From a virus: a stretch of 64,000 nt of DNA. Every line of letters starts with the position of its first letter. The stretch's first letter is position 1. Below are positions 36,402-62,577 of this stretch, one piece after another. The position numbers were made by a program, and so were the translations under genes. The notes beneath the pieces are model-generated. The model ran no database searches, was not told the DNA's origin, and worked only from the letters and a program-made list of their open reading frames with translations. The stretch covers positions 6,981-70,980 of the IMG/VR virus record IMGVR_UViG_3300050821_005575. One strand, 5' to 3'.

Positions 36402-36578
36402 AGAACGCATTTAGGATTGACAGATGAATAAGGACATCAAGAAGTGCCCGCCTTGTACCAAGGAAACCGGAAGGCAGGGGTTTGTCATCCGGTACTACCG
36501 GGGCGGGAGAATCCGGCTGCACAAGAAATGCGCCCGGCAGTTCGATCAGAATAGAAGTGCGTTTGGCTTTTGAGCTAT

Positions 36579-48146: not shown

Positions 48147-48401
48147 AAGACTCGGAGGATGAAATGACATGGCCGAGAAGCGAGAAGAAGCAATTCCGCC
48201 ATCGCCACCGCTGCAGGCATTGCAGGCGGGAATTCCTGTGTTGGGTGCCTCTGTGCCCTGGCGATCGGGAGTGCAGCAAGAAGCCGTGCCTGAGTCGTCG
48301 CGCTGCGGGTGCTGGGGCAAAGACGCTTGGCACCGGAAGTACGGAATGAAGCCGGGCGAAGTCTGTGTGAATTCGTAGAAGAACTGATTGGAAACTCATA
48401 G

Positions 48402-48545
48402 ATGATCTGCGCCAATAGGAAGTGCGCCAAGCCGTTCACGCCGGACAAGCCCTGGGGGAAGTATTGCTCCGAAAGTTGCGGGGACAAGGCTCGCCACCAG
48501 CGGTACTACCGGCGCAAGAAGAGGTCGGCACAGAAGGCAGATTGA
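48402..48545 (+). CDS. Zinc-finger mini-protein (below the track cutoff)
   Basis: CANRKC..F..KYCSESC; ends AQKAD* inside site 48528. Confidence 0.6.
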   Translation: MICANRKCAKPFTPDKPWGKYCSESCGDKARHQRYYRRKKRSAQKAD

Positions 48546-48560
48546 GTGCCAGGAGGGGAT

Positions 48561-48707
48561 ATGGAGTATGGGAAAAGGTGTCCGTGTAAGGTAGACCATA
48601 GAAAGGTGAAGTTGCGCTGTTCCTTGTGCGGCCATTTCAAGGAGCGCACGAAGAGGTGTCAATTTTACGAAATTCTTACAGCTTCCGTAGTGGCACAGAA
48701 GAGGTAA
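48561..48707 (+). CDS. Cys-rich mini-protein (below the track cutoff)
   Basis: AGGAGG RBS; ends AQKR* inside site 48693. Confidence 0.45.
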   Translation: MEYGKRCPCKVDHRKVKLRCSLCGHFKERTKRCQFYEILTASVVAQKR

Positions 48708-48709
48708 GA

Positions 48710-48805
48710 GTGCTGGTCGGAATTATCGTAGGTCTTGCTTACATTCTCGCTGGAGTTCTAGCTGAAGCGTGGGACCGCCAGGACGGGTTGGCACAGAAGA
48801 GGTAA
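48710..48805 (+). CDS. 31-aa membrane peptide (below the track cutoff)
   Basis: GTG in the right arm of site 48693; hydrophobic; ends AQKR* inside site 48791. Confidence 0.4.
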   Translation: MLVGIIVGLAYILAGVLAEAWDRQDGLAQKR

Positions 48806-48808
48806 AGA

Positions 48809-49051
48809 ATGCCGAAGACATTTAAGATTGACCCATGCTGGTTCGGAGAGCGAAAGGTCGTCTATGTCCGCGTAGAACTTCCGAGTCACAAGGACCGAGC
48901 CTCTACGGCGCACTTCGTCGTCTATGGACACTCGGTCGACAAAGTAGCCGACAAGGTCTTCAGTGCCCTAGCGAGAGAGTTCGGGTGGCATGGGGGCGGC
49001 CACCCAAGAGTCGGCCGGACGCCTAAGAAGAAGCTGGCACAGAAAAGGTGA
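48809..49051 (+). CDS. Hypothetical cassette protein
   Basis: ATG in site 48791, stop in site 49037. Confidence 0.6.
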   Translation: MPKTFKIDPCWFGERKVVYVRVELPSHKDRASTAHFVVYGHSVDKVADKVFSALAREFGWHGGGHPRVGRTPKKKLAQKR

Positions 49052-49054
49052 AGA

Positions 49055-49255
49055 GTGCATAAGATCTCGAAGATGATGGCGGCGATCATAGTCAAGAAGG
49101 ATGGCTCCGTCTGCTATACGATTCATGACGCCAAAGGAACTGTTGTGGCAGGTGGCGGAACTCGCCGTGGGAAGAATGCTCCAAAGGATCCGATCAAGAC
49201 GGCCTGCCAGAGCGTTGAGCGAATGCTTAGAGGACTTTTGGCACAGAAAGGCTGA
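49055..49255 (+). CDS. Hypothetical cassette protein
   Basis: GTG in site 49037, stop in site 49241. Confidence 0.55.
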   Translation: MHKISKMMAAIIVKKDGSVCYTIHDAKGTVVAGGGTRRGKNAPKDPIKTACQSVERMLRGLLAQKG

Positions 49256-49259
49256 AAGA

Positions 49260-49517
49260 GTGCCAAAAGAAGTCTACCTGAAAACCGGCTACTACGTCAT
49301 GTGGTACTCTCGCCGGAGCGAGGCTGGTCATCTTCGTCGCTGGCGCTCGGCGAGTAAGCACGGCCTTCTGATCTGCGTCGGCTGCGGCTTCTCCTGGCTG
49401 AAGGTGGCGACCGCGAAGATCAGTCTGGACGGAGAAGTCGAGTGCCGGGACAAGAGCGACTGCTTCCGGCGTCAGACGATGCGGATGAGAGTGAAGGGGG
49501 AAAATGATGGATCCTGA
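49260..49517 (+). CDS. Hypothetical Cys-containing protein
   Basis: GTG in the right arm of site 49241; CVGC..C..C. Confidence 0.5.
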   Translation: MPKEVYLKTGYYVMWYSRRSEAGHLRRWRSASKHGLLICVGCGFSWLKVATAKISLDGEVECRDKSDCFRRQTMRMRVKGENDGS

Positions 49518-49743
49518 TACTCCTGTAATCTGCGGCGACCACAACTACGTCGCATTCTCTCCGTGCCCGCGATGTGCGGCTATGACGGCGCCGCCACGGC
49601 CGGTCACCGCTACGTTCATTAGCCGAGTCGAAGTCGTTGCGAAATCAGACTTGAAACCATGGTGGATTCCTAAGATCGTTTTCATGTGGATGGCGAAAGT
49701 TGTTTCTAGGACGCAGGAAGTGAGATTAAAATAGAATATACCT

Positions 49744-50052
49744 ATGAAAGTAAAGATACTCCTGACAAAGGCGGAGCAGTCCGTCGGACTTCAGTACCTT
49801 CCGATGATCCCTGGCGACACCATCTACATCTTCGTTAGCCCTTCTCTCGGGGGTTACTTCCACTCCAGGAACGTGATAGGGCCGTTCGATCTGGTCTTCC
49901 TATCGTCGAGCCGTCAAGTTCTCTTTCAGAGAACCATGATCCCTCCGAACGATATCGTCGCGACTCCTCCTGGCGCCGCGTGGGCCCTGGAGGCGAAGCC
50001 TGGGGTGCTGCAGCGGTTCATCGTTCAAGGTAAGTTCACGCTGAGCTTCTGA
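49744..50052 (+). CDS. DUF192-like protein
   Basis: GLQY..F..NV..PFDLVFL..ALE pattern. Confidence 0.55.
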   Translation: MKVKILLTKAEQSVGLQYLPMIPGDTIYIFVSPSLGGYFHSRNVIGPFDLVFLSSSRQVLFQRTMIPPNDIVATPPGAAWALEAKPGVLQRFIVQGKFTLSF

Positions 50053-50300
50053 TGCCGAAGGAGATCCTCGTCTACCGCGGCTGGATCGGCGCGAAGGAGT
50101 TCGATCGTGCCGAGCTGGAGAAGATGGGGATCGAGCTCGGCCGCTGGAATCCGGAAGGAGCGTTCGACTACGTGTCGATGACGGCTGACGTGTACGCCGT
50201 CTTCACGAAGCGCTGGAAGGGTCGCGGGGTCTGGGGACTGATCGGCAAGCGGGAGCTCGTCTACTCGAAGACCGAGGACGACATCGACATCCCGTTCTGA
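50052..50300 (+). CDS. Hypothetical protein ending DDIDIPF
   Basis: TGATG coupling; SSB-like acidic tip. Confidence 0.55.
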   Translation: MPKEILVYRGWIGAKEFDRAELEKMGIELGRWNPEGAFDYVSMTADVYAVFTKRWKGRGVWGLIGKRELVYSKTEDDIDIPF

Positions 50301-50308
50301 ATCAGATC

Positions 50309-50638
50309 GTGTACACGATGACTTCTACGGGCTGGAAGTTCTCGGCGCACGCCGCCGAGCGTCTCGCGAAACGGTTGAGGCTTATCCTGGATATGCGGGT
50401 TGAGGCCGAGATCTCGCGGATGCTCGACTCGGCCCAGGCGAAGCCGGTAAAGCTGAACTACGGCCGGTCCCTGTACCAGATCCCGGTCATGGGTGTCAAC
50501 GTGATCGCGGTCTGCAATACTCGGGAGCGCATCGTCATCACGTTCATGGACGCGGAGAGATGGAACACGAAGTTCAAGCGCCGAACCAAACGCGACGACA
50601 AGTTCCGCCCTAAGGGCGGATTCGACGAGGAGGAGTAG
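50309..50638 (+). CDS. Hypothetical protein, weakly RelE/DUF4258-like
   Basis: FSAHAAERL...IVITF. Confidence 0.5.
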   Translation: MYTMTSTGWKFSAHAAERLAKRLRLILDMRVEAEISRMLDSAQAKPVKLNYGRSLYQIPVMGVNVIAVCNTRERIVITFMDAERWNTKFKRRTKRDDKFRPKGGFDEEE

Positions 50639-50681
50639 TACTGGACAGGTCGGAATCCAGTCTGCATACTATTAGACTACT

Positions 50682-51200
50682 GTGCCGAACGAACGGGAAG
50701 AGATCAGAAGGGCGATTGCTCTTGCAGAGCAGAAAGCGAAGGAGAGACTGATGCGTGGATCCCCGGCATTCCTTCCAGGCTCGTCGTACGTCGCCGGATT
50801 CAGTGAGGAGCCGTCGGTCGTCGTCTCAGTCCAGAAGCTCGGGAACGGGTACATGCTGGACCTCCGGACGAACCCGAAGCGCCCGCCTCTCCCGCGTCCC
50901 GTCCACGTCCCGAGCCCGTTCGCCGGTCAGGATCCCGACGAGTTGATCGACCGGATGATCGACGGCCTCGGCTCACTGGTCCGGTCCATCAACGACAAAG
51001 GGGCGGGAGAGCACTGGAAGGACGAGGACGACCGGAGGCAGGTCCGGGAAGCCTTCCGGATCATGTTCCCCGGCCTGACGAGCAGCGTCGATCGGCTGGT
51101 CTCCGACGAGCCGGAGCCGACCTACGAGGAGCCGCGGCACGAGCAACTCGTCTTCGAGACGAAGGAGAAGCTCTTCGAGTATCTGACGAAGAGCCTGTAG
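50682..51200 (+). CDS. Hypothetical protein
   Basis: GTG start in the right arm of site 50664. Confidence 0.6.
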   Translation: MPNEREEIRRAIALAEQKAKERLMRGSPAFLPGSSYVAGFSEEPSVVVSVQKLGNGYMLDLRTNPKRPPLPRPVHVPSPFAGQDPDELIDRMIDGLGSLVRSINDKGAGEHWKDEDDRRQVREAFRIMFPGLTSSVDRLVSDEPEPTYEEPRHEQLVFETKEKLFEYLTKSL

Positions 51201-51231
51201 TCGGCGCGGCATCGGGAAGAAGGAGAGGGTC

Positions 51232-51795
51232 GTGGACTTCCATCTAGAACGAATCTCGGTAGGTCGATTTAGATTTATCGTTGACAGAGAACCTCAACAG
51301 TTCGGATTCTGTCGGTGTGGCTGCGGCCTAAAGACGGACATAGCTACATACAACGTACCGGGTAAAACTATTAAAGGTCAGCCTTTAAGGTACCGGTCCG
51401 GTCACGGAGCGATGGCAAAAAAAACTGAGAAAGAAGTTGTACTGAAAGGTACGTGCCTCGTTTGGATGGGAGTTAGAAGTAGCGAGGGGTACGCGATTGT
51501 CGGCCATGTGTATATCCACACACTTTTATACGAAAAATTAACCGGTCGCATTCCTGATGGCCTTGAGCTAGATCATCTCTGTCGAAATAGGTTTTGTATA
51601 AATCCAAGACACGTCGAGCCTGTGTCCCGTGCCGAAAACTGCAGAAGAGGTGATGGGACAAAACTTACGTATTCAGATGTCGCTCAAATAAAAAGCATGA
51701 GAGAAAGAGGGGTAACCTTAAAAACAATAGCGAAAATATTCAGCGTTGGGCATCCACACGTTTCTAGGATCTGCTCTGGAAAGGTATGGAAATGA
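51232..51795 (+). CDS. HNH homing endonuclease with C-terminal HTH
   Basis: LELDHLCRNRFCINPRHVEPV..EN; AT-rich. Confidence 0.88.
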   Translation: MDFHLERISVGRFRFIVDREPQQFGFCRCGCGLKTDIATYNVPGKTIKGQPLRYRSGHGAMAKKTEKEVVLKGTCLVWMGVRSSEGYAIVGHVYIHTLLYEKLTGRIPDGLELDHLCRNRFCINPRHVEPVSRAENCRRGDGTKLTYSDVAQIKSMRERGVTLKTIAKIFSVGHPHVSRICSGKVWK

Positions 51796-52277
51796 GCGGA
51801 GGATTCGGAGAGCGGATAACAATGATCTGCGCTGTTTGCAGCTCCGCCCATCACGATAGCAGTAAAGAGGTCTACGTTCACGATGCGCAGACAGGGGCTT
51901 ATAGGAAGGCGATTTGTCCGCTATGCGTCTGTCTTGATTGCTGCCAACTCCACAACGACCCGATCCGATCGAAGATCCGGCCGCTGATGATGGGCCAGAC
52001 GCTCGCGCAGCAGTACCACCTGACCGTCGACGAGCACCTGCCTGGACAGCCTGCACGGAAACGGAACATCACGATCAAGGCGCCCGGTCCGCTCAACGTC
52101 CCGGAGGCGATCAAAGCGATGGGGGACCTGATGGGCCTGCAGGGTCCGGAGGCGCCTCCCCGCCACAACCTACAGCAGTCTGTTCCCTGTAACTGTAGTA
52201 AGAATGCCGTTTCGAAGTGCATCGCCTGCGAGATGCCGCTCTGTATCAAGTGCCTGAAGACTCATGACTGTGGATAA
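51792..52277 (+). CDS. Multi-zinc-finger hypothetical protein
   Basis: Several CxxC motifs; B-box-like C-terminus. Confidence 0.55.
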   Translation: MSGGFGERITMICAVCSSAHHDSSKEVYVHDAQTGAYRKAICPLCVCLDCCQLHNDPIRSKIRPLMMGQTLAQQYHLTVDEHLPGQPARKRNITIKAPGPLNVPEAIKAMGDLMGLQGPEAPPRHNLQQSVPCNCSKNAVSKCIACEMPLCIKCLKTHDCG

Positions 52278-52298
52278 TTCTCAAAGGAGGATCTGACG

Positions 52299-52643
52299 AT
52301 GGACAGCGGCGTGACTTTCCTGATGACCCCGCTCCCCGGACAGCGGATCGTCGATGGCAAGGATCCGGACGACTGGGAGGACGGCTCGGTCCTGGCGCTC
52401 CGGAAGGGTGGCGACGAGGTCCTGTTCGCCTCCTGGGAGGTCGAAAATCCGAAGGGGATGACCTGGATCCCGGTCGGCGAGTTCTCGCCGGATCCGGAGT
52501 CGGTCCAGCCGCCGAACCTCGAGCGCGAGGAGGAGCACCTGGAGCCGCCCGCCGACGAGACCGGCGCATCGGAGCGTCCGTCCGCGGCCGGTCCGTTCGG
52601 ACGTGGCTCCGGCAGCCTCCGGCGCCGTCCGGGGGTGGAGTAG
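52299..52643 (+). CDS. Hypothetical protein
   Basis: AGGAGG RBS. Confidence 0.55.
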   Translation: MDSGVTFLMTPLPGQRIVDGKDPDDWEDGSVLALRKGGDEVLFASWEVENPKGMTWIPVGEFSPDPESVQPPNLEREEEHLEPPADETGASERPSAAGPFGRGSGSLRRRPGVE

Positions 52644-52646
52644 ACC

Positions 52647-53030
52647 ATGGGCAAGAAGGGCAAGCCGGAGGAGTCCGAGCAGTTCGAGGTCTGGATCTCC
52701 TCGGTCAAGGGTTGGTTCCGCGTCGAGGAGAACGGAAACGAAGGTGTCTTCGTCAGCAAGAACCGGGCGATGCTGCTGGCGGAGTCGAAGTCTCACGGCG
52801 AGGAGGTCGTCGAGACCATGGTCATCTCCCGTCGGCCGATCGCCGTCTTCAACGGCGAGGCGATTGCCGTCAAACACCGTCTGGCCGCCGTTGGGAAGAA
52901 GGAGACAAGCAATGCCGAGGTTCACAGCGGTCGTAAGGATCAGGTCGACGTTCCGGAAGCCCGCCCTACAGACCAACCTGAAACCGGTCCTGGTGGGGCC
53001 GGACGGGAAGGAGCTCCCGAAGGACGATAG
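52647..53030 (+). CDS. Hypothetical protein
   Basis: GGAG RBS. Confidence 0.5.
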   Translation: MGKKGKPEESEQFEVWISSVKGWFRVEENGNEGVFVSKNRAMLLAESKSHGEEVVETMVISRRPIAVFNGEAIAVKHRLAAVGKKETSNAEVHSGRKDQVDVPEARPTDQPETGPGGAGREGAPEGR

Positions 53031-53271
53031 CGGTGCCTACATCGGCACCGGCACGCAGAAGTTCGAGAAGACGGAGACGGACTCGACGCACGACCCCCTG
53101 ACCGACGAGGCCGGGAACATCGTGACGGCCGGGAACCCCGACGCGCTCCTCCGGAAGGTGAAGGAACACTTCGCCGCGGACGAGTTCGAGAACGTCAAGG
53201 TCCTGGAGGTCTCGATCCAGGAGACCCTGACCATGAAGCATGTGACCGGTGAGGAGCTCGCGAAGCTGTGA
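52912..53271 (+). CDS. Hypothetical protein
   Basis: AAGGAG RBS before ATG 52912. Confidence 0.55.
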   Translation: MPRFTAVVRIRSTFRKPALQTNLKPVLVGPDGKELPKDDSGAYIGTGTQKFEKTETDSTHDPLTDEAGNIVTAGNPDALLRKVKEHFAADEFENVKVLEVSIQETLTMKHVTGEELAKL

Positions 53272-53682
53272 TCGGGGGAACCGTGACAAACCCGTCCGGA
53301 CTTACTAAGGATCCGATCGAAGGCGATGTTCCGGTCGCCTGCACGGTCTCAGGCGCCGTCTACACGCTCCGGAAGGTCGTCGGCGGGGAGACGCCGAAGG
53401 AGCTGGAGGTCGCCCTGCGCGGCCTCGAACGGGACGGCGTCAACATGCGCTTCGTCGGCGTCCCCTGCTCGGACTGCCGGTTCACGGTCTCGACGGACCG
53501 GGACCTCGGCAAGCGCTCGACCTGCGAGTACCGGCCCCTCCGCGGGCCTCTGTACGTCCCCAGACAGACCGGAGCCCTGCCTACCCAGGAACGGGGCTCC
53601 CCACCCCTCTCCTAACGCCAGGAGGGGCCCGGCCTTACACGGGCCCCTCCGGCGGCGTCAGGGGTGGGGTATTGGAGGTTAA

Positions 53683-54132
53683 ATGAAGAAAGTCCAGCTA
53701 AGGAAGAGCGATCTCTTCGCCCTAGTGGATGATGAGGACTACGATCGAGTCTCGAAGTATAGGTGGACTCTTGAGATCCGAAAGAATGGCCTTCGGTACG
53801 CCAGGGCATCCGTCTCCGGAAAGGTTATTCGACTCCATAGATTCATCTTGAACCTACGTCCAGGCGTCGGCAGTGTCGATCATGAGGACGGAGACGGACT
53901 CAATAACACGAAGAAGAACCTACTGGAGACCACAAGGGCGGAAAACGTCCGGAATGGAAGAGTCCATAGCGACTCAACCTCAAGGTATAAAGGGGTCCTC
54001 CGGGTGAAGTTGAGATGGATGGCTAAGCTAATCCTTGGGACGTTCGATACAGAAGAGGAAGCTGCGGCGGCCTACAGGAAAGCATTCCAGGCGTACTTCG
54101 GACGCCCTCCCAGGTACCCATCTAAGGGGTAA
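53683..54132 (+). CDS. HNH endonuclease with AP2-like domain
   Basis: ALVDDED..LHRFI..VDHEDGDGLNN..NL; SRYKGV..LGTFDTEEEAA. Confidence 0.88.
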   Translation: MKKVQLRKSDLFALVDDEDYDRVSKYRWTLEIRKNGLRYARASVSGKVIRLHRFILNLRPGVGSVDHEDGDGLNNTKKNLLETTRAENVRNGRVHSDSTSRYKGVLRVKLRWMAKLILGTFDTEEEAAAAYRKAFQAYFGRPPRYPSKG

Positions 54133-54190
54133 ATACCCCCTCTAGGGATGCACACAACTCTCATTGTGTGCAATATTCCGTTTTTTCGCC

Positions 54191-54219
54191 TTGACTACTG
54201 TACAGTAGTCGTATATAAT
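54191..54219 (+). promoter_or_regulatory. Sigma70 promoter with overlapping 18-bp perfect palindrome (putative operator)
   Basis: TTGACT-N17-TATAAT; GACTACTGTACAGTAGTC at 54193-54210. Confidence 0.7.
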
Positions 54220-54225
54220 CTGGTC

Positions 54226-54831
54226 ATGACGAAGAAGGAGGTCCCCGTGAAGGCGGTCAAGATCAACCGGGAGGCGTGGCTCCGGGCGGCCTACGCGCTC
54301 CTCCGGAGGAAGCTCCTGAAGGAGGCGCCGGAGCAGGTCGCGCTCTCCTGGTCCTTCCCAGCCAAGGGCGGCACCTCGGCGAACCGGCGCCGGATCGGCG
54401 AGTGTCACTACAAGGGCGGCTCGGCCGACGGCGCGATCGAGGGCGACCGGGTCATCCTGATCTCGCCGACGCTGAAGTCGCCCCTGGAGCTCATCGAGAC
54501 CCTCCTGCACGAGATGGTCCACGCGGCCCTGCCGATGGGCTGCGGCCACCGGAAGCAGTTCTCCCGCCTCGCGGCCCGGGTCGGCCTCGTGAAGCCCTGG
54601 ACGGCCACCAAGGCCTCGCCGGAGCTCGCGAAGCGGATTGAGGGTGAGTTCCTGCCCGCCCTGCCCGCGTGGCCCGGCGGCCACCTCGTCATCCAGGCGA
54701 CCCAGAAGAACCGCCAGCTGAAGGGCGTCTGCGAGTGCGAGCGGATCATCCGGGGTTCGGCTAAGCTCTTCGAGGCCGGACCGATCATCTGCGGCCTCTG
54801 CGAGGCGCCCTTCGAGCTGGAGGCGAAGTAG
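54226..54831 (+). CDS. SprT-like zinc metalloprotease
   Basis: TLLHEMVH..GH..F; C-terminal CEC..CGLC. Confidence 0.8.
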   Translation: MTKKEVPVKAVKINREAWLRAAYALLRRKLLKEAPEQVALSWSFPAKGGTSANRRRIGECHYKGGSADGAIEGDRVILISPTLKSPLELIETLLHEMVHAALPMGCGHRKQFSRLAARVGLVKPWTATKASPELAKRIEGEFLPALPAWPGGHLVIQATQKNRQLKGVCECERIIRGSAKLFEAGPIICGLCEAPFELEAK

Positions 54832-54833
54832 AC

Positions 54834-55310
54834 GTGTACACGGACAGATCCCTAGGTCTTGCGATTCGATTCTGGATGCACGTTCAGGTGTCAACGACGA
54901 ACGCCTGCTGGCTCTGGACGGCCTCAACGGTAAAGGGATACGGACAGATCGGAGCTGGTGGCACGGGCGGAAGGATGTTGAAGGCTCACAGGGTCTCCTG
55001 GGAGATGCATAACGGTCAGATTCTGGATGGGATGGGCGTTCTCCATAGTTGCGACACCCCCCTCTGCGTCAATCCGAAGCATCTTTTCCTTGGAACAACG
55101 GCTGATAACAATAAGGACATGGTCGAGAAGGGGAGGCAGGTAAGAGGGTCTCGTGTGGCCCATAAGACCAGCTTGACCGAGGCTAAGGTTTTAGAGATGA
55201 AGCTACTCCTTAAGATTGGACAGATCAGATCTGAGATCTCTAAGAAGTTCAACGTTACGATGAACGTGGTCAATGAGATAGCCAGCGGAAGAACGTGGAG
55301 GCATGTATGA
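54834..55310 (+). CDS. HNH homing endonuclease
   Basis: CWLW..GYG..AHRVSW..VLHSCDTPLCVNPKHL..N..DM..KGR. Confidence 0.9.
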   Translation: MYTDRSLGLAIRFWMHVQVSTTNACWLWTASTVKGYGQIGAGGTGGRMLKAHRVSWEMHNGQILDGMGVLHSCDTPLCVNPKHLFLGTTADNNKDMVEKGRQVRGSRVAHKTSLTEAKVLEMKLLLKIGQIRSEISKKFNVTMNVVNEIASGRTWRHV

Positions 55311-55729
55311 TGACGGAAATCAGGTCTCCTAAACTGTTTAACGGAAAATACACCGTCGAGTCCAAGGCGACCGGCGAGCACCGGACCTTCTGGGTCCGAA
55401 CGCAGCCCACGGACGCCGAGTTCGCGCCCGGCAAGCGCGTCCTGGGGCTCCTGACCGGCACGCAGAACGACGACCCGGACCACTACACCGGCTTCGCCTT
55501 CGTCGACGACAGCGGGATCCACGTCTGGCGCTCGAAGGCCGAGAAGTCCCCGCTCTGGGGGCAGTACGCCGACCTGCTCTGGACGCTGGCCCTGGACGGT
55601 GCCCTATCGCCCTGGGCCGACAAAGGCTTCACGATCCTCATGGAGGGCGCCTGCGTGCGCTGCAATCGACCCCTGACCAACCCTCAGTCGATCAAGACCG
55701 GGATCGGACCGATTTGCGAGGGCCTGTAG
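55307..55729 (+). CDS. DUF6011-like protein
   Basis: CVRCNRPLTNPQSIKTGIGPIC. Confidence 0.8.
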   Translation: MMTEIRSPKLFNGKYTVESKATGEHRTFWVRTQPTDAEFAPGKRVLGLLTGTQNDDPDHYTGFAFVDDSGIHVWRSKAEKSPLWGQYADLLWTLALDGALSPWADKGFTILMEGACVRCNRPLTNPQSIKTGIGPICEGL

Positions 55730-55910
55730 GAGGAATTATGGTCGTGAGAAAAGGTGGCCCTAAGCACTTCTTCGATGGTCATTCAGACCCGGAGTGGATG
55801 GCGATGGCTATGTGGTGGGCTCTCACAAGATCGGAGACGTGCCACCTGCCTATCCGTCGTCCGATGCGCTGCACCTACATGTGGATGTGTTTGAATTGAA
55901 GGAGGAGACC

Positions 55911-56117
55911 ATGTTCTGCGCCACCTGCGTCAGCTACCCGAACCACGTCAGCTTCGCCGCCGAGGTGATCGCCGACGACTACGGCAAGTTCTGCGGCAAC
56001 GGCCTGCGCTTCGCCAGCCCGGACGAGGCGAAGGCGTACGCCAAGGACCTCTTCTCGCGCTGGACCGCCGTCCGGTCCTGGCGCGTCGTCCCGTCGACGG
56101 ATCCCGTGAATCAGTAG
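55911..56117 (+). CDS. Small phage hypothetical protein
   Basis: AAGGAGG RBS; NGLRFA..EA..Y..DL..RW. Confidence 0.65.
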   Translation: MFCATCVSYPNHVSFAAEVIADDYGKFCGNGLRFASPDEAKAYAKDLFSRWTAVRSWRVVPSTDPVNQ

Positions 56118-56130
56118 AAGGAGGAGCCAG

Positions 56131-56460
56131 ATGTCGTTTCCGCCGATTGTCCGCCGCGCGATCCTCGACCGCCAGCCATCCAGGCGTCGCCGCACACAGC
56201 CCGGGTCGACCGTCACCTCGGTCGTCGTCCGGCTCGCCGTCGCTCCGGAGCGGGTCCGACTGTTCAAGATCGACGCGCGTTACCGTCAGCTCAACCTGAG
56301 CACCAAGGAGCTGTCCTGTCTGCAGCCGATCCAGATCACGCTCTTCTGGAATCGCTACGCGTGCCGGTCCGTCCGGCTGATCATCAATCAGCGCCGGGCG
56401 TACCTGCTGTCGGTCACGGAGACCGGAATCGTCGTCTTCTCGTACTCGAAGATCTCTTAG
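56131..56460 (+). CDS. Hypothetical basic protein
   Basis: AAGGAGG RBS. Confidence 0.55.
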   Translation: MSFPPIVRRAILDRQPSRRRRTQPGSTVTSVVVRLAVAPERVRLFKIDARYRQLNLSTKELSCLQPIQITLFWNRYACRSVRLIINQRRAYLLSVTETGIVVFSYSKIS

Positions 56461-56594
56461 GATGTGGCTATGATCCAGGTGATGATGCTCTGCTGGGCGA
56501 ACGGACACGTCGGGGCGGGTGCCCCGCTGGTCCTCCTGGCAGCGGTCCTGCTCGTCGTCGCGCTGCTCGGCAGCATGTCGCGCGAGGAGGGCTC

Positions 56595-56909
56595 ATGAGG
56601 TTATCCGACGTCAACCCCGCGAAGTGCCCGCACCTGTACGCCGCCCTGAAGCGCGGCCAGGAGCGCCAGTACGAGGGCTGGGCGCGTGTCGCCGAGCTGC
56701 GCCGGTCCGGACAGGAGGACGCGGCCGGTCGCCTCGTCCGGAAGCTGCTCGGCGTCCATGGGCCGCCGATGCCGGAGGAGGTCAAGGAGAAGCTCCGCCG
56801 GTACAACGAGGAGCACCGGGACGAGATCCGCGAGAGGCGTCTGCAGGCCGTCGCGACGCGCCGCCGGACGCTGGCGCTCCTGACGACGGGAAGGAGGATC
56901 GGACGTTGA
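56595..56909 (+). CDS. Hypothetical protein
   Basis: GGAGG RBS before ATG 56595. Confidence 0.55.
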   Translation: MRLSDVNPAKCPHLYAALKRGQERQYEGWARVAELRRSGQEDAAGRLVRKLLGVHGPPMPEEVKEKLRRYNEEHRDEIRERRLQAVATRRRTLALLTTGRRIGR

Positions 56910-57046
56910 TCGAGACGAAGCTGAAGTGGACGGTCTACGTCGGCGGTCGCCTGCTCGATGTCATGACCGACGAGCAGGTCGAGGAGATGATCCAGACCTG
57001 GAAGGTGATCCTGATCGACGCGCGACGTGGGCTGATTGAGTTTTGA

Positions 57047-57538
57047 ATGAGCAAGAAAAGGTACGAGGTAATGCCTCTCGAGCTTCGAATGCTTCGGTAT
57101 ATCGACTTCACGTCGACGTGCTGGAACTCAATGAAGGTCCCGACTGATCGTGGTTATACGCAGATCGGAACAGTTGACCAGTCGAAGCCTCCCGGGTCAT
57201 ACCACAAACTCAAGATGTTTCACGTCGCTGTCTGGGAGATCCTTAAAGGAAAGATTAAGGAAGGTCTTCAGTTAGATCACCTATGCCGAAATCCTCGCTG
57301 TGTCAACCCGAAGCATCTTGAGCCTGTAACTCCAAGGGTAAACACGCTTAGAAGTCTCGCTCCATCCGCCTTCAATTCGAGAAAGACGAAGTGTCTTCTT
57401 GGGCACCCATTCAATAGGGAAAACACCTACCGATATCGTGGGTATCGAGCATGTAAGATTTGCAGAAGAAGGCAGCTTAGAGAATCAAGACAAAGAAAAC
57501 TCTACAGGACTGTAAAGGAGGGGATGCGCCCCTGCTGA
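57047..57538 (+). CDS. HNH homing endonuclease
   Basis: LDHLCRNPRCVNPKHLEPVT..N..KTKC..GH..CKIC. Confidence 0.9.
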   Translation: MSKKRYEVMPLELRMLRYIDFTSTCWNSMKVPTDRGYTQIGTVDQSKPPGSYHKLKMFHVAVWEILKGKIKEGLQLDHLCRNPRCVNPKHLEPVTPRVNTLRSLAPSAFNSRKTKCLLGHPFNRENTYRYRGYRACKICRRRQLRESRQRKLYRTVKEGMRPC

Positions 57539-57639
57539 GCGGTAACCCCTCTCTATCCGGGCCGGAGCACTTCGCTCCGGCCCTCCTCGCGGGCGGCCCG
57601 AGTGGACCGTCCACGAGGAATGAAGGAGGAGTTATAGCT

Positions 57640-57897
57640 ATGACGACGAGCGACGAGAGGTACCCTCAGCACGCGAAGTTGAAGAAGGTTTCTGATAAGA
57701 CGCAGTTCGTCCATGACTTTCTGACCTTCTGTGAAGGGAAGGGTATCAGCCTTCAGACTGAGGATGGCGTCTACAAGCGACACGCAGATCTGCTTTACGA
57801 GTTCACCGGGATCGACCAGTGGAAGCTCGAGGACGAAAAGCGGTCGCTGATCGAAGACTGCAGGAAAATGATCGACAGTAGCAGGAAGAAGAGGTGA
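57640..57897 (+). CDS. Hypothetical protein
   Basis: AAGGAGG RBS. Confidence 0.6.
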   Translation: MTTSDERYPQHAKLKKVSDKTQFVHDFLTFCEGKGISLQTEDGVYKRHADLLYEFTGIDQWKLEDEKRSLIEDCRKMIDSSRKKR

Positions 57898-58111
57898 CCT
57901 GCCGCATCTGCCGTCAGCGTCCGGACTTCCGTGCGATCAAGCAGGTTCGCCTGCGCGCGGCGATCTACGGGATCGTCCCGTACGGACTCTGCCTGTGCGG
58001 AATGGAGGTCCTGCCGGACCGGAACGACGTAAACTACCGGAGAAGGTGGAAACGGGCCCTCTGGAGGGCCGTTTCCAGCGCCGGTAACCAGGGGTAATCG
58101 AGGGTGAAACG

Positions 58112-58606
58112 GTGACGAAGAAGGACAGGATCCGCTTCTGGAGCAAGGTGAAGGTCGACCCGACGACCGGCTGCTGGATCTGGACGGCGGCGGTCCGGAC
58201 CTGGAAGGCGGAGCCATGGGATGGGGGCTTTGGCGCCTTCAAGCTCTACGGGAAGGTCGAGCGGGCTCACAAAGTCGCCTACCGGATCCTCTTCGGCTGC
58301 TGGCCGCCAAGAGGGAAGGTCCTCCGGCACGGCTGCGACAACCGGCGCTGCGTGAATGTCCTGGAACACATCGAGCCCGGGACGCAGAAGCAGAACGTCG
58401 CCGACATGATCGCTCGAGGAAGGTCGATTCAGCAGCGTCGAAAGGCTACAATTTCACAGGGAGACGAGAATGGGCAATCCGAACCTTCGCAAGGGCAAAC
58501 CGAATCCGTACGGACCGACCGGCCTGTCGAGACGGGTTTTACTGCAGTTAGAGGACGGTCCCGCGACGATCAGTTCTATCCTTGGCGAGATGGTACCGCG
58601 CAGTGA
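58112..58606 (+). CDS. HNH endonuclease
   Basis: RFWSKV..CWIW..AHKVAY..HGCDNRRCVN..H..GTQKQN. Confidence 0.88.
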   Translation: MTKKDRIRFWSKVKVDPTTGCWIWTAAVRTWKAEPWDGGFGAFKLYGKVERAHKVAYRILFGCWPPRGKVLRHGCDNRRCVNVLEHIEPGTQKQNVADMIARGRSIQQRRKATISQGDENGQSEPSQGQTESVRTDRPVETGFTAVRGRSRDDQFYPWRDGTAQ

Positions 58607-58832
58607 TGGGGTCAACCGTGGGACGATCCTGACGATCTTGAACCGGGCGATCCTGAACGGCCTCGTGACGACGAACCGCCTGGACGGCGCGAAGAAGCCG
58701 TACCTCTTCGAGCTGACGGACGGCGGCCGACGCCGGATCGAGTGGATCCACGGCACGAAGGCGAAGGTTAAAGCGCCGCCCAGGTCGAAGCTCCGGATCG
58801 TCGCGAACCCGAATGTCGAGGAGGATGAGTGA
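58470..58832 (+). CDS. Winged-helix DNA-binding protein
   Basis: VLLQLEDGP...GLV...FELTDGGR (PadR/MarR-like wing). Confidence 0.6.
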   Translation: MGNPNLRKGKPNPYGPTGLSRRVLLQLEDGPATISSILGEMVPRSDGVNRGTILTILNRAILNGLVTTNRLDGAKKPYLFELTDGGRRRIEWIHGTKAKVKAPPRSKLRIVANPNVEEDE

Positions 58833-59134
58833 TGGGCAAGCTCGACGGTGGCGAAATGAGCGACGACATCGAAGAGATCAAGGCTATGATCGCCGACGCC
58901 AATGAGGAGGCACTCCTGGCAGACGGCTTCGACGGCGCGCTGATCGGGTTCGTCGAGATTCCTGGGAAGCTGGTCGCGTTGTACGACAAGGAGAAGTGTA
59001 TCGAGATCCTGATGCTCCGGGACGGCATGTCCTACGAAGGGGCCTACGACTTCTTCGAGTTCAATGTCCGGGACGCCTTCGTTGGCGAGGGGACCCCAGC
59101 CTTCGCGACGATCCTGAGGAAGTCTGCACACTAG
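58832..59134 (+). CDS. Conserved phage hypothetical protein
   Basis: ADGFDGALIG..YD..CIEIL..A..FFEFN..VGEGTP; stop inside site 59126. Confidence 0.75.
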   Translation: MGKLDGGEMSDDIEEIKAMIADANEEALLADGFDGALIGFVEIPGKLVALYDKEKCIEILMLRDGMSYEGAYDFFEFNVRDAFVGEGTPAFATILRKSAH

Positions 59135-59192
59135 ATAAATTCTGTGCCGTAGGATATATAATCGTACAGCGGGAAGATAATAAGGAGTCGAC

Positions 59193-59393
59193 ATGCTTTC
59201 GTTGATGCCAGGGCTCATCTGCTTTCACGGGAAAGAGTCTGGGGTCATCCTGGCAATAAGCTCCGACGAGAAGTGCGCGCTATTTGCAGGGAAGGACATG
59301 ACTCCTCTTCGGTGGGTAGAGATTGGTGAGATCACCGGGGATCCGGCTGCAATAGTCTCCGGAGATGACATCAAGAAGCTTCGCCCCAGGTAA
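59193..59393 (+). CDS. Hypothetical cassette protein
   Basis: TAAGGAG RBS; stop is the first TAA of site 59391. Confidence 0.6.
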   Translation: MLSLMPGLICFHGKESGVILAISSDEKCALFAGKDMTPLRWVEIGEITGDPAAIVSGDDIKKLRPR

Positions 59394-59418
59394 TCTTAGT
59401 GGAAGAAGATAAACAGCT

Positions 59419-59871
59419 ATGAAAGTGATACCTAAGCTGTTCCATGGCACCTTGGTAAAGTACGTCTCAGATATCCTCGAAAAAGGTATCGAAGAGGGGG
59501 AAGGCTGGGGCGGCGCTGGAACTGTCGGTACGTTCCTTTCTGGGACACCAGAAGGAGCTCTGTATTGGGCGAAGCTCGCGTACATGCGGTACAACGACGA
59601 GAGGATGGAGGCTGACAGGTTCGATCGTGACCACGGCGATGAGGCAGACAAACTAATCGCCGTAATTGCCGTCCAAATACCTACCCACGCTGAAGATGAA
59701 CTAAAGGCCGATGAGGAACAGTTCGAGGACGTCATGGCGGACTTTTCTCCGGACGACTGGAGGCAGTCGTTAAAGGAGATCGGAGACGTGCGTTTTGACG
59801 GCTCGATTCCTCCGGAGTGGATAAAAGAAGTTATTCGCCCAAGCGACGTAAAGACGTCTGGCCGTAGGTAA
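59419..59871 (+). CDS. ADP-ribosyltransferase-fold protein (tentative)
   Basis: LFHGT...IL..GI...FLS....A..WA...IPPEWI resembles ART/Tpt1-like motifs; stop in site 59869. Confidence 0.55.
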   Translation: MKVIPKLFHGTLVKYVSDILEKGIEEGEGWGGAGTVGTFLSGTPEGALYWAKLAYMRYNDERMEADRFDRDHGDEADKLIAVIAVQIPTHAEDELKADEEQFEDVMADFSPDDWRQSLKEIGDVRFDGSIPPEWIKEVIRPSDVKTSGRR

Positions 59872-59903
59872 TCTTCTCGGCAGAAGATAATAGAAAGGAT
59901 TTT

Positions 59904-60116
59904 ATGGCCGTACCAAAAGTCATCCGGAAGTTGCTTATCGGGAGTTACGTGAAGTTGAAGAAGCCGATCCATCGACACGACCTTCACATCCCAAAGGGAA
60001 CTGTCGGATACATCATGAGCGTCAGCGAGCGCGGCACGTCAGCAATGATTGGCTTCGACGACGGAAGGAAGTACGGGAAGTTCGAGTGCTGGTTCAAGGA
60101 TCTCGACCCCGCCTAG
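59904..60116 (+). CDS. Small SH3-like hypothetical protein
   Basis: GSYVKL...IPKGTVG.I..V pattern; stop in CCTAGG before site 60118. Confidence 0.55.
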   Translation: MAVPKVIRKLLIGSYVKLKKPIHRHDLHIPKGTVGYIMSVSERGTSAMIGFDDGRKYGKFECWFKDLDPA

Positions 60117-60125
60117 GTAATCTTC

Positions 60126-60557
60126 ATGGAAAAGCCGAAGTTCCAACTCAAGCGCCAGGGAACCGTGATCGTCGAGTACGACGACGAGAACGGCTACACC
60201 GTCGGCCTGCCGGACGGCTCGGTCGAGTTCGCGACCAGCAGGAAGGGCGTTGAGAGGATCGCGAAGAAGTGGAGCAAGGAGAACATTCCGCCCGGGTACA
60301 ACGGTGGACTCCTGGAGATCGACTACCGCAGCGAAGGCCCGCGCAAGAATCCGATTGAGGATCCGTTCATATTCCATCTGAAGCCTAGCGGCTGGACCGG
60401 TGCTCCTTGTCCGATCTGCGGCTGCGCGACCAAGAACCTCCGGGCAAAGCATCGGGCGTTGAAGGCAGATGAGGCGCACGAGTGGGGCGTCCCGTACATC
60501 AAGCGCGTCAGCGTGTCGTTCGGCGGGGACTTCTCCGACGAGCCTCTGAAGGAGTGA
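60126..60557 (+). CDS. Two-module hypothetical protein joined at RKNP
   Basis: ATG directly after the family B left arm; CPICG in the second module. Confidence 0.6.
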   Translation: MEKPKFQLKRQGTVIVEYDDENGYTVGLPDGSVEFATSRKGVERIAKKWSKENIPPGYNGGLLEIDYRSEGPRKNPIEDPFIFHLKPSGWTGAPCPICGCATKNLRAKHRALKADEAHEWGVPYIKRVSVSFGGDFSDEPLKE

Positions 60558-60558
60558 T

Positions 60559-60900
60559 ATGAGCCTTTCCTGCTACGACACCGTCGAGAGGCATGTCCGA
60601 GGTGAAGGGACTGACTACGGCACGACAGGATTCTTGATCCTAACGCACGGATCCCTTCGGCTGGTCTGGAGGCCCGGGAGCACGATCTGGGCTGGAATCG
60701 GCCGCACGGCATACTCTCCCGCGTGCCTTCAGGTCGAAGGCTATGGGTCGCGGGCGCTAAAAGGCACCGAACTATTAAGCGGAGGACGACTGACCGAGGA
60801 TCGGTGGCTGTCGGTCAGGAAGAAAATCTCAATCCTCCTCTCAGTTCCTTTAGAGATGATCCCGGAGATGCTTCCGGAGCGTACAATCGAGTTCCCCTAG
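60559..60900 (+). CDS. Hypothetical protein
   Basis: AAGGAG RBS; stop in CCTAGG before site 60902. Confidence 0.6.
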   Translation: MSLSCYDTVERHVRGEGTDYGTTGFLILTHGSLRLVWRPGSTIWAGIGRTAYSPACLQVEGYGSRALKGTELLSGGRLTEDRWLSVRKKISILLSVPLEMIPEMLPERTIEFP

Positions 60901-60926
60901 GTAATCTTCTTGGTGGAAGATAAACG

Positions 60927-61115
60927 ATGCACATCAACACGCGCCAGTGGAGCCCATGGGACGGGTACTATTGGTGGCATCGCTGGGAGAACGGCCGGGC
61001 CGAAGTCGTTCCGGTCTTCGTCTCGAAGTTCAGAGCATGGCGCCCGGTTCAGCAGCGGCCTCGAGATGGCACAGTCGTTCGCCATAAGACAGGCGGCTTA
61101 AAGCGCGTTGCCTAG
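60927..61115 (+). CDS. Hypothetical cassette protein
   Basis: Exactly fills the space between sites 60902 and 61117. Confidence 0.5.
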   Translation: MHINTRQWSPWDGYYWWHRWENGRAEVVPVFVSKFRAWRPVQQRPRDGTVVRHKTGGLKRVA

Positions 61116-61181
61116 GTAATCTGTTCTGCGTACGATTATAGCTGCACAGATCTGTGATTCGGTGCCGGAAGAGAGGTAGGC

Positions 61182-61412
61182 GTGGTCGACAATCTGCTGC
61201 ACTTCAGGACGATGTTCGGCGCGTCGCTCGGGGCGGTCATGCTGCTGGCCTTCTTCGTCGTGACCCGGTCGCGGTACTCGATCCTCCGGAAGTACTCGCT
61301 CCTGAGGGAACGTCCATACGGATGCAAGAAGTGCCTCGTCTGCGGCGGCGAGATTCGGGACCTGTGCAGCAGTCATCACAACCACGACTGGTGCCGCTGC
61401 GTCTGGCGCTAA
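61182..61412 (+). CDS. Small membrane protein with Cys/His tail
   Basis: TM segment followed by CKKCLVC. Confidence 0.5.
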   Translation: MVDNLLHFRTMFGASLGAVMLLAFFVVTRSRYSILRKYSLLRERPYGCKKCLVCGGEIRDLCSSHHNHDWCRCVWR

Positions 61413-61462
61413 ACTCCGGGAAACCGTAGAATCATACCTGCGACCGGGCGCAGGGGGCTCGC

Positions 61463-61786
61463 CTGAAAGTCTACGCGATCAAGGGCTCGAACTGCCCACT
61501 TCGGATCCAGATCTCCGACGACGAGATTGTCGCCTGCCTGCAGTTCCGTGACGAGCGCGGGGATCCGTTCTACTGGAAGCTGGTCTCGGTCGACACGGCG
61601 ACGAGGCTGATCTGCGAGTTCCAGATGACCGTCGCCTTCCTGCTGCCGGATACGCCGGAGGAGCAGATCACACCCGAAGCTCCTGGAGGGTCCGACGATT
61701 GTACCGGAGGGACTCGAAGCCCAGAACCTCCTGGGCGATCCGATCCGCCTCGTCCTGGACCGCCTGAGGTGTCCGCTTCGTCGTGA
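61463..61786 (+). CDS. Hypothetical protein with probable CTG start (not in the track)
   Basis: Open frame LKVYAIKGSNCPLRIQISDDEIVACLQF... with typical codon usage and a GGGGG RBS-like run. Confidence 0.4.
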   Translation: MKVYAIKGSNCPLRIQISDDEIVACLQFRDERGDPFYWKLVSVDTATRLICEFQMTVAFLLPDTPEEQITPEAPGGSDDCTGGTRSPEPPGRSDPPRPGPPEVSASS

Positions 61787-62066
61787 TCGGCCGGGAATGC
61801 TCCGGATACCGGAGACGCTTGCCGACAATGTGCCCGAGTTCGTGCGCGGACATCCCGAGGATCTCTTCGTCGAGGAGTTCGATCTCGGCGGCCTTCGCGA
61901 AACAGACCGTGTACACGCGGTGATTCGTATGGGCGAACTGGCGCCATTTTGCGGCGTGATGCCGGTCCGCCAGCGGGCAGAAGGTGAACCGGACGGACCG
62001 GATCCATGGAAACCTAAGTGCCGCCTGCGCCCGGATCAGACCGAAGAGGACCTCGACTCGGCTCAC
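61668..62066 (-). CDS. Putative zinc metallopeptidase-like protein
   Basis: AHELGH...EAD motif; GGAGG RBS. Confidence 0.6.
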   Translation of the reverse strand: MSRVEVLFGLIRAQAALRFPWIRSVRFTFCPLADRHHAAKWRQFAHTNHRVYTVCFAKAAEIELLDEEILGMSAHELGHIVGKRLRYPEHSRPITTKRTPQAVQDEADRIAQEVLGFESLRYNRRTLQELRV

Positions 62067-62067
62067 G

Positions 62068-62577
62068 TCACTCCTCCACGGACTGGCGTCGGCCGGTCGG
62101 CAGCGGCGCCGTGTCGCGCTTGACGCGGTCGGCGATCGTCTTCAAGTGCCCCTCGATCTTCTCGAGGAAGCCGTCCTCGACCTGATTCTTCATGACCTCG
62201 ACGATCGGCCGGGCCTCCTTCAGGAAGTCCTTGATCGAGTCCGTCGTGTACTGGTTCGTCTTGAGGCCTGTGTAGGCCATCCGGACCGTCATCGAGACCC
62301 GGCGGATGCTCGTGATCGTCGCCGGGACGATGAAGGCGAGGCCGAAGGTCATCAGGACGATCGCCATGACGGCCGGAGCGACCATTCCGATCGTACTGAG
62401 CTTCGTGTAGCCGAGAAACAGCGCGGCGCCGACAGCCCCAGCCAGGAGCGGGACCGTCGTCGACATGAGGATGCAGACCTTCCAGACGCGCCTGATCTCC
62501 CGGTCGAGCTCCTCCGGCGGGACGATATTCTCGAAGGTGATCGCCGGAATCTTTTGTGACTTGTCAAGTTCGTCCAC
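62068..62577 (-). CDS. Two-TM membrane protein
   Basis: Two hydrophobic helices. Confidence 0.65.
   Translation of the reverse strand: MDELDKSQKIPAITFENIVPPEELDREIRRVWKVCILMSTTVPLLAGAVGAALFLGYTKLSTIGMVAPAVMAIVLMTFGLAFIVPATITSIRRVSMTVRMAYTGLKTNQYTTDSIKDFLKEARPIVEVMKNQVEDGFLEKIEGHLKTIADRVKRDTAPLPTGRRQSVEE

Follow-up and report, generated by a model that had tools for sequence, protein, structure and literature searches.

How do viruses shuffle accessory genes and still keep the order of their genomes? The usual answers to this old question are illegitimate recombination with subsequent selection, or homologous recombination at conserved linkers. The question is raised in a compact form by a stretch of soil-virus DNA of 64,000 nt, positions 6,981 to 70,980 of the IMG/VR record IMGVR_UViG_3300050821_005575, which we refer to as the window and in whose coordinates positions are given unless another genome is named. 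The window makes up most of a 70,980-bp contig (G000) that carries a 27-bp terminal direct repeat and is graded complete in IMG/VR. Between 59159 and 61140, five 22-bp sites and one lone left arm, which we call the B sites, separate six small open reading frames (ORFs) of 66, 150, 70, 143+113 and 62 amino acids (aa). Three kinds of comparison with related sequences show that accessory genes have been exchanged, inserted, lost and fused exactly at these sites. Because relatives keep the order of the sites and carry different genes between them, B sites mark points of gene swapping. A first-pass annotation, made by a model from the letters of the window, had taken the sites for cassette boundaries, and this stands: relatives keep the sites and differ in the genes, in gene number and sometimes in site order.

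Ordered sites and the turnover of genes between them

According to pattern scans, three viruses in IMG/VR carry the B motif, as do 19 of 32 metagenome loci (GC 0.54-0.63). The comparison set consisted of three relatives taken whole (G001, 70,898 bp, complete; G002, 68,222 bp; G003, 38,276 bp and roughly half of its genome), 17 metagenome pieces, and contigs from two other samples. Eleven array-less loci with single matches, mostly of low GC, were omitted (L032, L033, L034, L037, L041, L042, L043, L048, L050, L051 and L062), as was L052, which is the same record as G002. L035 and L045, identical to parts of L039 and L040, were dropped from the logo and from the counts of stops and starts, order, turnover and identity, and were kept among the 101 intervals. 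A 4,973-bp metagenome contig (L046) with two mirror-image B arrays symmetric around its centre is probably a fold-back assembly artefact and was excluded from counts. Sites were called at a threshold of 13 of 16 arm matches, with five site orientations set by hand to the majority of their array.

The logo of 119 sites reads cccTAGG-TAATCTTC-N6-GAAGATAA-a, its arm conservation being inflated because calling demands 13 of 16 arm matches, and 79 of 80 strict-arm matches have a 6-bp spacer. The site carries stop codons in three frames (TAG at -3, TAA at +1 and TAA at +20), on which 75 of 107 upstream ORFs end (30, 36 and 9, respectively). The next gene begins 1-15 nt past the site, with downstream starts peaking at +23 (15 starts; 43 within +22 to +29). 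In 73 of the 119 sites the right arm takes the GATAA form, which breaks a stem pair and creates the third-frame stop; internal right arms read GATAA, and non-coding copies GATTA, because GATAA supplies a stop codon even though the palindrome is broken. Many centres are G-rich and precede GAAGA. B sites are confined to gene junctions of the accessory region, are oriented with transcription, and point in the same direction throughout each array.

Each site has its own 6-bp centre, and the order of the series is common to the arrays: GTAATC, TTCGGA, TCGGAG, TTGTTA, TGACTG, TAAAGA, CTGACC, CCAACG, CAACGG, GTGGAA, TCGGCA, TTGGTG, TAGAGT. In 20 arrays, 62 of 63 consecutive canonical centre pairs are collinear, the canonical order having been derived from these same arrays. 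The five centres of the window (CAGCGG, GTGGAA, TCGGCA, TTGGTG and TCTGCG) are the tail of the series. A sister group of lower-GC viruses carries a scaffold of 13-15 ordered sites (15 in L039, 13 in L053) and essentially no sites of a second family, family A, described below. The window block is a five-site copy of this scaffold, placed inside one slot between two family A sites.

Between these sites the genes turn over. When the window is compared with its relatives, only stretches of 28-44 bp at sites align (87-100% identity), in addition to the flanks outside the block in the case of G001, and, apart from one case in five arrays, no similarity could be detected in the genes between the sites. 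The B arrays of G000 and G001 differ in content in every slot. Core and backbone proteins of G000 and G003 are 24-43% identical, yet four centres are identical and stand in the same order. In L039, L047 and L053, identity is 93-100% for the sites and 81-88% for the one or two genes in common, and the remainder is unalignable. A homologous protein was found in 3 of 217 same-slot interval pairs (same two centres, different sources), and the genes are unrelated in the other 214. Homologues in differently bounded intervals amount to 14 pairs, of which several represent the same slot with a mutated centre and others are real moves; the 70-aa gene of the window is matched by a relative at 54% identity from the same slot of L058 and by one at 47% from the CCAACG-CAACGG slot of L039. 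Uninterrupted identity around sites of the same type has a median of 21 bp and reaches at least 30 bp in 33 of 504 pairs. This is little for ordinary homologous recombination, if perhaps enough for phage annealing proteins.

Breakpoints in other samples fall on the same edges. Assembled contigs of four runs, X1 (the source), X2 (landfill), X3 (soil) and X4, were compared with the block. X2 and X3 contain a 143+113-aa cassette about 97% identical to that of the window, with homology ending at 59866 and at 60923/60924, beyond which the sequence is unrelated; these breakpoints are the outer edges of the second and third internal sites, B2 and B3. Each of the two runs also has a contig that joins 59894 directly to 60126, from which the 70-aa gene and the lone left arm are absent and in which the 143-aa gene follows a complete TCGGCA site. 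From this joint it follows that the half site at 60118 is the scar of two cassettes fused by the loss of a centre and a right arm. Other contigs of X2 pass from the end of the 143-aa gene to a TTGGTG site without the 113-aa gene. Many X2 joints are site-only matches to other arrays and not deletions. Contigs of X4 gave no match to the block, and those of the source run X1 no joint.

Recombinases and the proposed exchange

A single tyrosine recombinase gene (42640-43425, plus strand; PF00589 at 1.9e-16) was found in the genome, encoding a protein with a Cys-rich N-terminus and lying 16 kb from the array. G000, G001, G002 and G003 have exactly one PF00589 gene each, with no serine recombinase and no Y1 transposase. 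The family of the resident enzyme, which also includes the recombinases of G001 and G002 and which we call the recA type, comprises 91 proteins, largely on 66-73-kb contigs. Seven residues assigned to the catalytic set by way of the known box I and box II motifs (R119, E122, K147, H209, R212, W235 and Y244) are invariant in 14 of 14 aligned homologues, and matches in the PDB are weak (XerA, E 0.00052; IntI4, E 0.0011). G003, L044 and L063 encode a different recombinase, the recB type, which has no significant alignment to the recA type (E 0.02), and in G003 and L044 its gene sits between B sites. A sites accompany the recA type in 8 of 8 pieces, and B sites accompany the recB type in 3 of 3, with 0-1 A-pattern matches. 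As far as such co-occurrence goes, it fits one enzyme per arm family, and the recA-type recombinase is a candidate enzyme for family A. The first-pass annotation had suggested a second recombinase outside the window. A distinct type does occur with B sites in G003, L044 and L063, but the complete 70,980-bp genome has one PF00589 gene, and a second recombinase is therefore absent genome-wide and not merely outside the window.

We propose that B sites are gene-junction elements that would act as fixed, position-labelled crossover points for accessory-gene swaps between related viruses. Each consists of a left arm (cccTAGG-TAATCTTC), a position-specific 6-bp centre and a right arm (GAAGATAA), and supplies an incoming gene with stop codons in three frames. 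A tyrosine recombinase would bind both arms and would need matching 6-bp centres, as XerC/XerD does at pdif sites. By this matching rule, neighbouring sites in one genome would be inert to each other and the same site in two co-infecting genomes would recombine. Candidate enzymes for the B sites are the resident single recombinase, a B-type enzyme of a co-infecting relative, and a host enzyme. That B sites work like pdif under a tyrosine recombinase is the best-supported mechanism, and we judge it to have about an even chance of being correct. A rigid 22-bp site with a position-specific centre offers a defined and testable mechanism, namely matching-centre exchange by a tyrosine recombinase, and G000 separates the effects of a resident enzyme from those of a helper because it combines two nested site families with one recombinase. 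If the address rule holds, the principle of the pdif module would be extended from plasmids to viruses. Engineered cassette exchange uses heterospecific lox and FRT sites, to which these arrays would then be a natural counterpart.

The closest known system is that of the dif modules, bounded by pdif (XerC/XerD) sites, which are described from Rep_3 plasmids of Acinetobacter (PMC13141974, PMC6449649). In the account of PMC13141974, pdif sites likewise have two recombinase-type arms around a 6-bp spacer, occur in many copies per replicon, each bounding a small accessory module, and have spacers that differ between sites. Rearrangement and module replacement are described there between identical or near-identical spacers, a process for which the B sites offer a comparative pattern only, and fused modules are reported as well (PMC13141974). 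The differences are equally plain. The replicon here is a virus, and sites of an array all point in the same direction, whereas C/D and D/C sites alternate on the plasmids described in PMC13141974. The arms of B sites are near-palindromic and unlike those that Table 1 of PMC13141974 gives for Acinetobacter pdif. B sites also double as stop/start junctions of an operon, and their centres form a long ordered series kept across distant relatives.

Several observations weigh against this proposal. No enzyme is tied to the sites by any test in the analysis, and B-site exchange proceeds without a resident B-type recombinase, because G000 and G001 lack one and their arrays differ. The association of the recA and recB types with the two arm families is a two-clade contrast and not a set of independent events. 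The resident recombinase gene stands just after a transfer-messenger RNA (tmRNA) gene and may simply encode an integrase. A tyrosine-recombinase fold is in itself compatible with binding alone, as for the protein MrpR, described as only binding the repeated SPBRE sites of a phage and acting there as a repressor (PMC10516654). Beyond the derivation of the canonical order from the arrays in which collinearity was counted, the placement of TCTGCG relative to TTGGTG varies (after it in nine arrays, before it in three), which amounts to two orders. The ubiquity of TCGGCA and TTGGTG is partly a matter of selection, because the metagenome search pattern required such centres. Lastly, homologues across slots are about as frequent as those within a slot (14 versus 3 pairs), which strict in-register exchange does not predict.

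Outer arms, the empty-site question and rival explanations

The outer arms of the first and last copies in the window are complementary (TATAATCGTAC and GTACGATTATA), 59157-59167 being the exact reverse complement of 61130-61140 over 11 bp that take in the arms, the TA flanks and one centre base; the perfect inverted repeat noted in the first-pass annotation is thus real. These outer arms, TATAATCGTA...TACGATTATA, also bracket a six-site array in L060 (a 70.5-kb contig; start TATAATCGTA-CAACGG, end TCTGCG-TACGATTATA) and a three-site array in L087 (a 67-kb virus; start as in L060, end TCGGCA-TACGATTATA). The array of G002 opens with a hybrid of the outer left arm and an internal centre, TATAATCGTA-GTGGAA, and the second array of G001 ends in TTGGTG-GACGATTATA; a hybrid of TTGGTG and GACGATTA occurs both at this end in G001 and in L044. 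The outer right arm is absent from G002, L167 and array 1 of G001. From the array ends of L060, L087, G001 and G002 it follows that the outer arms stay with the flanks while the adjoining centre changes. Comparison of the hybrid sites places the switch of partners at the borders between arm and centre. These borders are where tyrosine recombinases cut. Single cassettes can lie between duplicates of one centre (TTGGTG twice around a 95-aa gene in L060, TCGGCA twice in G003/L009), and some neighbouring centres are near-duplicates (CCAACG/CAACGG, TTCGGA/TCGGAG and TCGGTA/TCGGCA); site duplication upon insertion does, on these comparisons, seem to happen.

From the outer arms the first-pass annotation had drawn a model in which circular cassettes, each carrying TAATCTTC-N6-GAAGATAA, integrated one after another into a palindromic site that was empty at first, TATAATCGTA-N6-TACGATTATA, and so split it, in the manner of attI and attC and with the help of a second recombinase. 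We consider this quite unlikely. Complementary outer arms in G000, L060 and L087, with five, six and three sites between them, agree with it, as do the same-centre pairs around single cassettes in L060 and G003 and the near-duplicate neighbouring centres, which are expected if insertion duplicates a site. Against it, the arms of G000, L060 and L087 may be shared by descent and so count as one event, and in G002, L167 and array 1 of G001 there is no outer right arm. The first and last centres differ in each array, which is not expected of one integration into one empty site, and no empty site was found in a relative, none of the 16 exact IMG/VR loci of TAATCGTA-N6-TACGATTA being one. Moreover, the centres keep one order in 20 arrays and do not travel with the genes, and the complete genome has no second recombinase. 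In integrons, attC sites are imperfect palindromic, variable hairpins of 57-141 bp that travel with the cassette, and the IntI integrase adjoins attI at the head of the array. The B arrays resemble integrons in being arrays of mostly single-gene, promoterless cassettes in one direction behind a hybrid first site, in the variation of cassette number and content between relatives, and in the presence of a tyrosine recombinase in the genome, with IntI4 as a weak PDB match. They differ in that B sites are 22 bp with constant arms and share none of the anatomy of attC; their centres stay with a position in a fixed order and not with a gene, so that the attI/attC likeness falls away. In addition, the recombinase gene is 16 kb from the array and no attI/Pc module was identified. 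An integron-style split-site history for the outer arms is possible, as something other than the main process. A related reading, in which each cassette is a transposable unit with terminal inverted repeats GAAGATAA...TAATCTTC that duplicates a 6-bp target, is barely credible and the least probable of those considered. Cassettes do end in inverted arm copies, some with identical flanking centres (L060, L009/G003), but most neighbouring centres differ, the centres are conserved across genomes, unlike random target duplications, and the four genomes have no Y1 transposase or serine recombinase, DDE families not having been searched.

The strongest competitor to pdif-like exchange is a regulatory one, which we hold possible but doubtful. 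Here the arms would be binding sites of a regulator, either a recombinase-fold repressor like MrpR or a stoperator-type silencer, and swapping would be a by-product of viral recombination at a conserved 20-35-bp motif, all the homology that diverged viruses would still have in common, as proposed for PeSL, the promoter-early stem-loop cassettes described from T4-like phages (PMC2839356, PMC4122927). Both MrpR (PMC10516654) and PeSL (PMC2839356) are precedents, the sites occur only at accessory gene junctions and run with transcription, the viral proteins include an AAA_24 (Sak4-like) one, and B arrays change even where a genome lacks a B-type recombinase. L053 (3703-3790) and G003 (36387-36408) have a solitary perfect palindrome, TAATCTT(A/C)-TGTAAG-GAAGATTA. 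In L053 a consensus TTGACA-N16-TATAAT promoter follows it after about 40 bp and heads the array operon, which also speaks for a regulator; in G003 it comes about 90 bp after a 75-aa gene located behind that of the recB-type recombinase. Dimeric binding gives no reason for position-specific centres, however, and sites are 93-100% identical versus 81-88% for shared genes. Recombination at the motif would have to make do with exact identity of a median of only 21 bp around same-type sites, and hybrid sites switch at the arm/centre borders, where homology amounts to a few bases. PeSL are like the B sites in being short repeated motifs between non-essential small genes in plastic phage regions, at which insertions, deletions and replacements end. 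As described in PMC2839356, though, a PeSL consists of a sigma-70 early promoter and a terminator stem-loop, its exchange is ascribed to homologous recombination, and it has no position-specific centre or fixed order. Mini-circles arising from adjacent motifs are a further trait of PeSL; for the B block, the assembled contigs of the source run X1 contain no joint. Neither promoter nor terminator was found at the B sites: the two promoter-like (sigma-70) and three terminator-like matches in 57500-62500 include none at a B site and do not exceed shuffles. MrpR (YopR), the master repressor of Bacillus phage SPbeta, is likewise a tyrosine-recombinase-fold protein in a phage with a repeated element at many intergenic places, but it is reported to have lost four of seven catalytic residues, keeping 3 of 7, and not to recombine (PMC10516654), whereas the recombinase here retains all seven in 14 of 14 members. 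On this comparison a binding-only role for it is possible. Highly improbable, in our view, is an RNA motif, a hairpin whose 5' arm would contain the upstream stop and whose 3' arm a purine-rich ribosome-binding stretch, and which would couple translation or mark processing. The site-borne stops of 75 of 107 upstream ORFs, the starts right after the site and the many G-rich centres before GAAGA would suit it. In 1 of 5 sites the minimum-energy prediction is the arm-arm hairpin; 4 of 5 sites fold no better than shuffles (z -0.09 to 1.21), and the 59869 site alone does (z -2.19). The GATAA form breaks the stem pair in 73 of 119 sites, hybrid first and last sites are unable to pair, and neither the fixed spacing nor the position-specific centres are explained. 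Matching-centre exchange by a tyrosine recombinase thus remains our preferred reading. A CRISPR-like array, iterons, a packaging signal and RNase III sites were rejected as a misfit with 22-bp sites that have 8-bp arms and stand at every gene junction.

The pattern searches returned some loci of other kinds. L023, a match to the empty-site pattern, has a GC of 0.54, no B site and one weak A-pattern match. The head-of-array pattern GTGCCGTA-N3-8-TATAATC gave mostly chance matches in IMG/VR, and among the matches listed only L167 is a relative. L017, L027 and L028, likewise matches to the empty-site pattern, belong to one 35.9-kb IMG/VR contig (GC 0.48) with nine perfect palindromes, TAATCGTAA-N4-TTACGATTA, each just before the conserved AGGAGA-ACACACATG start region (ribosome-binding sites) of consecutive genes. 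In the pieces compared, this contig has no protein in common with G000 or G003, and its sequence, 66% complete, gave no PF00589 match. No published phage system of the same kind as the B arrays was found in the literature by word searches, which were narrow and give no proof of absence.

The block, its family A frame and the rest of the genome

Within the window, the motif (A)GGTAATCTTC-N6-GAAGATAA is confined to 59159-61138. The 8-6-8 pattern with at most three mismatches has seven matches over both strands, all in 59159-60923 (0.34 expected; none of 100 shuffles reaches seven), and the exact 9-mer AGGTAATCT has five copies in the 64 kb, all between 59388 and 61122. The first-pass annotation proved right on the coordinates of the sites, on their 8-6-8 geometry and on the stop codons that they carry or abut: all five upstream ORFs end within or against the left arm (TAA at 59391 and 59869, TAG at 60114, 60898 and 61113).

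All features of the block lie on the plus strand. A family A site, GCACACTA-GATAAA-TTCTGTGC (59126-59147), belonging to the GCAC-N14-GTGC family, bounds the A slot on its left and ends 9 bp ahead of the block; G001 has an identical GATAAA site, likewise offset by 33 nt from its first B site, and L060 and L087 have a GCTAAA-centred A site there. The first site, B0 (59157-59180, arm from 59159), is composed of the outer left arm (TA+TAATCGTA), the centre CAGCGG and the right arm GAAGATAA, and this outer arm also opens the arrays of G002, L060, L087 and L167. It is followed by the 66-aa gene (59193-59393), for which no family was found and which is absent from G002, where the outer arm is joined directly to the centre GTGGAA. 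B1, TAATCTTA-GTGGAA-GAAGATAA (59391-59412), carries the TAA stop of this gene, and its centre occurs in 13 of 22 arrays. The 150-aa gene (59419-59871) encodes a protein with ...LFHGT... in its start, whose features in the Atlas match an Arr-ms (rifampin ADP-ribosyltransferase) cluster at 0.95 with 153 shared features and whose structure row points to a DarT/PARP cluster; an ADP-ribosyltransferase-like fold is a lead only. B2, TAATCTTC-TCGGCA-GAAGATAA (59869-59890), is part of 28 bp at 100% identity to G001 with both flanks unrelated. The 70-aa gene (59904-60116) ends before the lone left arm TAATCTTC (60118-60125), which is fused to the ATG (60126) of the two-gene cassette of 143 and 113 aa (60126-60900). 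B3, TAATCTTC-TTGGTG-GAAGATAA (60902-60923), precedes the 62-aa gene (60927-61115), which has a 74%-identical homologue after the TTGGTG site in L063. The last site, B4 (61117-61140), has the left arm TAATCTGT, the centre TCTGCG and the outer right arm TACGATTA+TA, and L060 ends alike. The right border of the A slot is GCACAGAT-CTGTGA-TTCGGTGC (61144-61165), 3 bp after the block, with its centre kept in G001 and G002. Five of the six cassette proteins had no Pfam or PHROGs match, the 150-aa protein having no Pfam match and one weak PHROG of unknown function, and the 143-aa protein had no Atlas match above 0.84.

Family A sites (GCAC-N14-GTGC) extend over 33823-61165 and have position-specific 6-bp centres of their own. 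GAAATA, GACCTA, GCCGAA, GGCAGA, GAGGTA, AAGGTG, GATAAA and CTGTGA recur in this order in G000, G001 and G002, and three of the four slots compared (GACCTA>GGCAGA, GGCAGA>GAGGTA and GAGGTA>AAGGTG) hold unrelated DNA. Large rearrangements between G000 and G001 end at A or B sites (54150, 59159 and 61117-61144). From these ends and the turnover in A slots it follows that the B array fills one A slot. Its TA-flanked outer arms are 9 and 3 bp away from the A sites that enclose it, and the annotated view that its landing pad is itself a family A module agrees with an A system that behaves alike. A broader scheme would have two orthogonal exchange systems, each made up of a zinc-ribbon recombinase (recA or recB type), its own arms (A or B) and ordered centres as addresses, that allow slot-by-slot swaps during co-infection without scrambling the genome, the B array having been imported from the sister group and being serviced in trans; taken as a whole, we think this scheme rather unlikely. 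Between 50937-59163 of the window and 47738-59703 of G001, two blocks are inverted or transposed, with ends at A sites (54150 in the window; 47739 and 59696 in G001) and at B arrays. The two B arrays of G001 are oppositely oriented, and G000 looks as if it combined the head of one with the tail of its counterpart.

The genome encodes, besides its recombinase, a D5-type primase-helicase, the AAA_24 protein, and glycosyl- and methyltransferases. GC in the block is below that of the genome (0.52 in 59001-60000 versus about 0.62 overall), and blastn of 58400-61900 against 50,697 phage records gave no match. In the presumed virion module (366-16300, minus strand), 10 of 10 large proteins had no PHROG match at E 0.001, and the two largest matched no Pfam family. 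A scan of a genome collection returned five matches, four of which are single low-GC chance matches, the other being L080, a 14-kb contig with three B sites. Hints about the host conflict, as L080 was binned with a Thermoanaerobaculia metagenome-assembled genome (MAG), too weak a link to name a host, and a homologue of the recombinase (P0067) is labelled as coming from a Thermoplasmata MAG. A complete tmRNA gene of 294 nt with the tag GKRQLLAAA (ARAGORN) lies at 41777-42070, with a perfect-armed family A site (41681) on one side and the recombinase gene on the other, and points to a bacterial host. Three paralogous HNH endonucleases are encoded a short way upstream of the array (54834-55310, 57047-57538 and 58112-58606), and homologues of them are cassettes within the B arrays of L044 (12341-12700) and L053 (5394-5756); the end of the HNH gene in L053 is a site, followed by an empty 6-bp slot.

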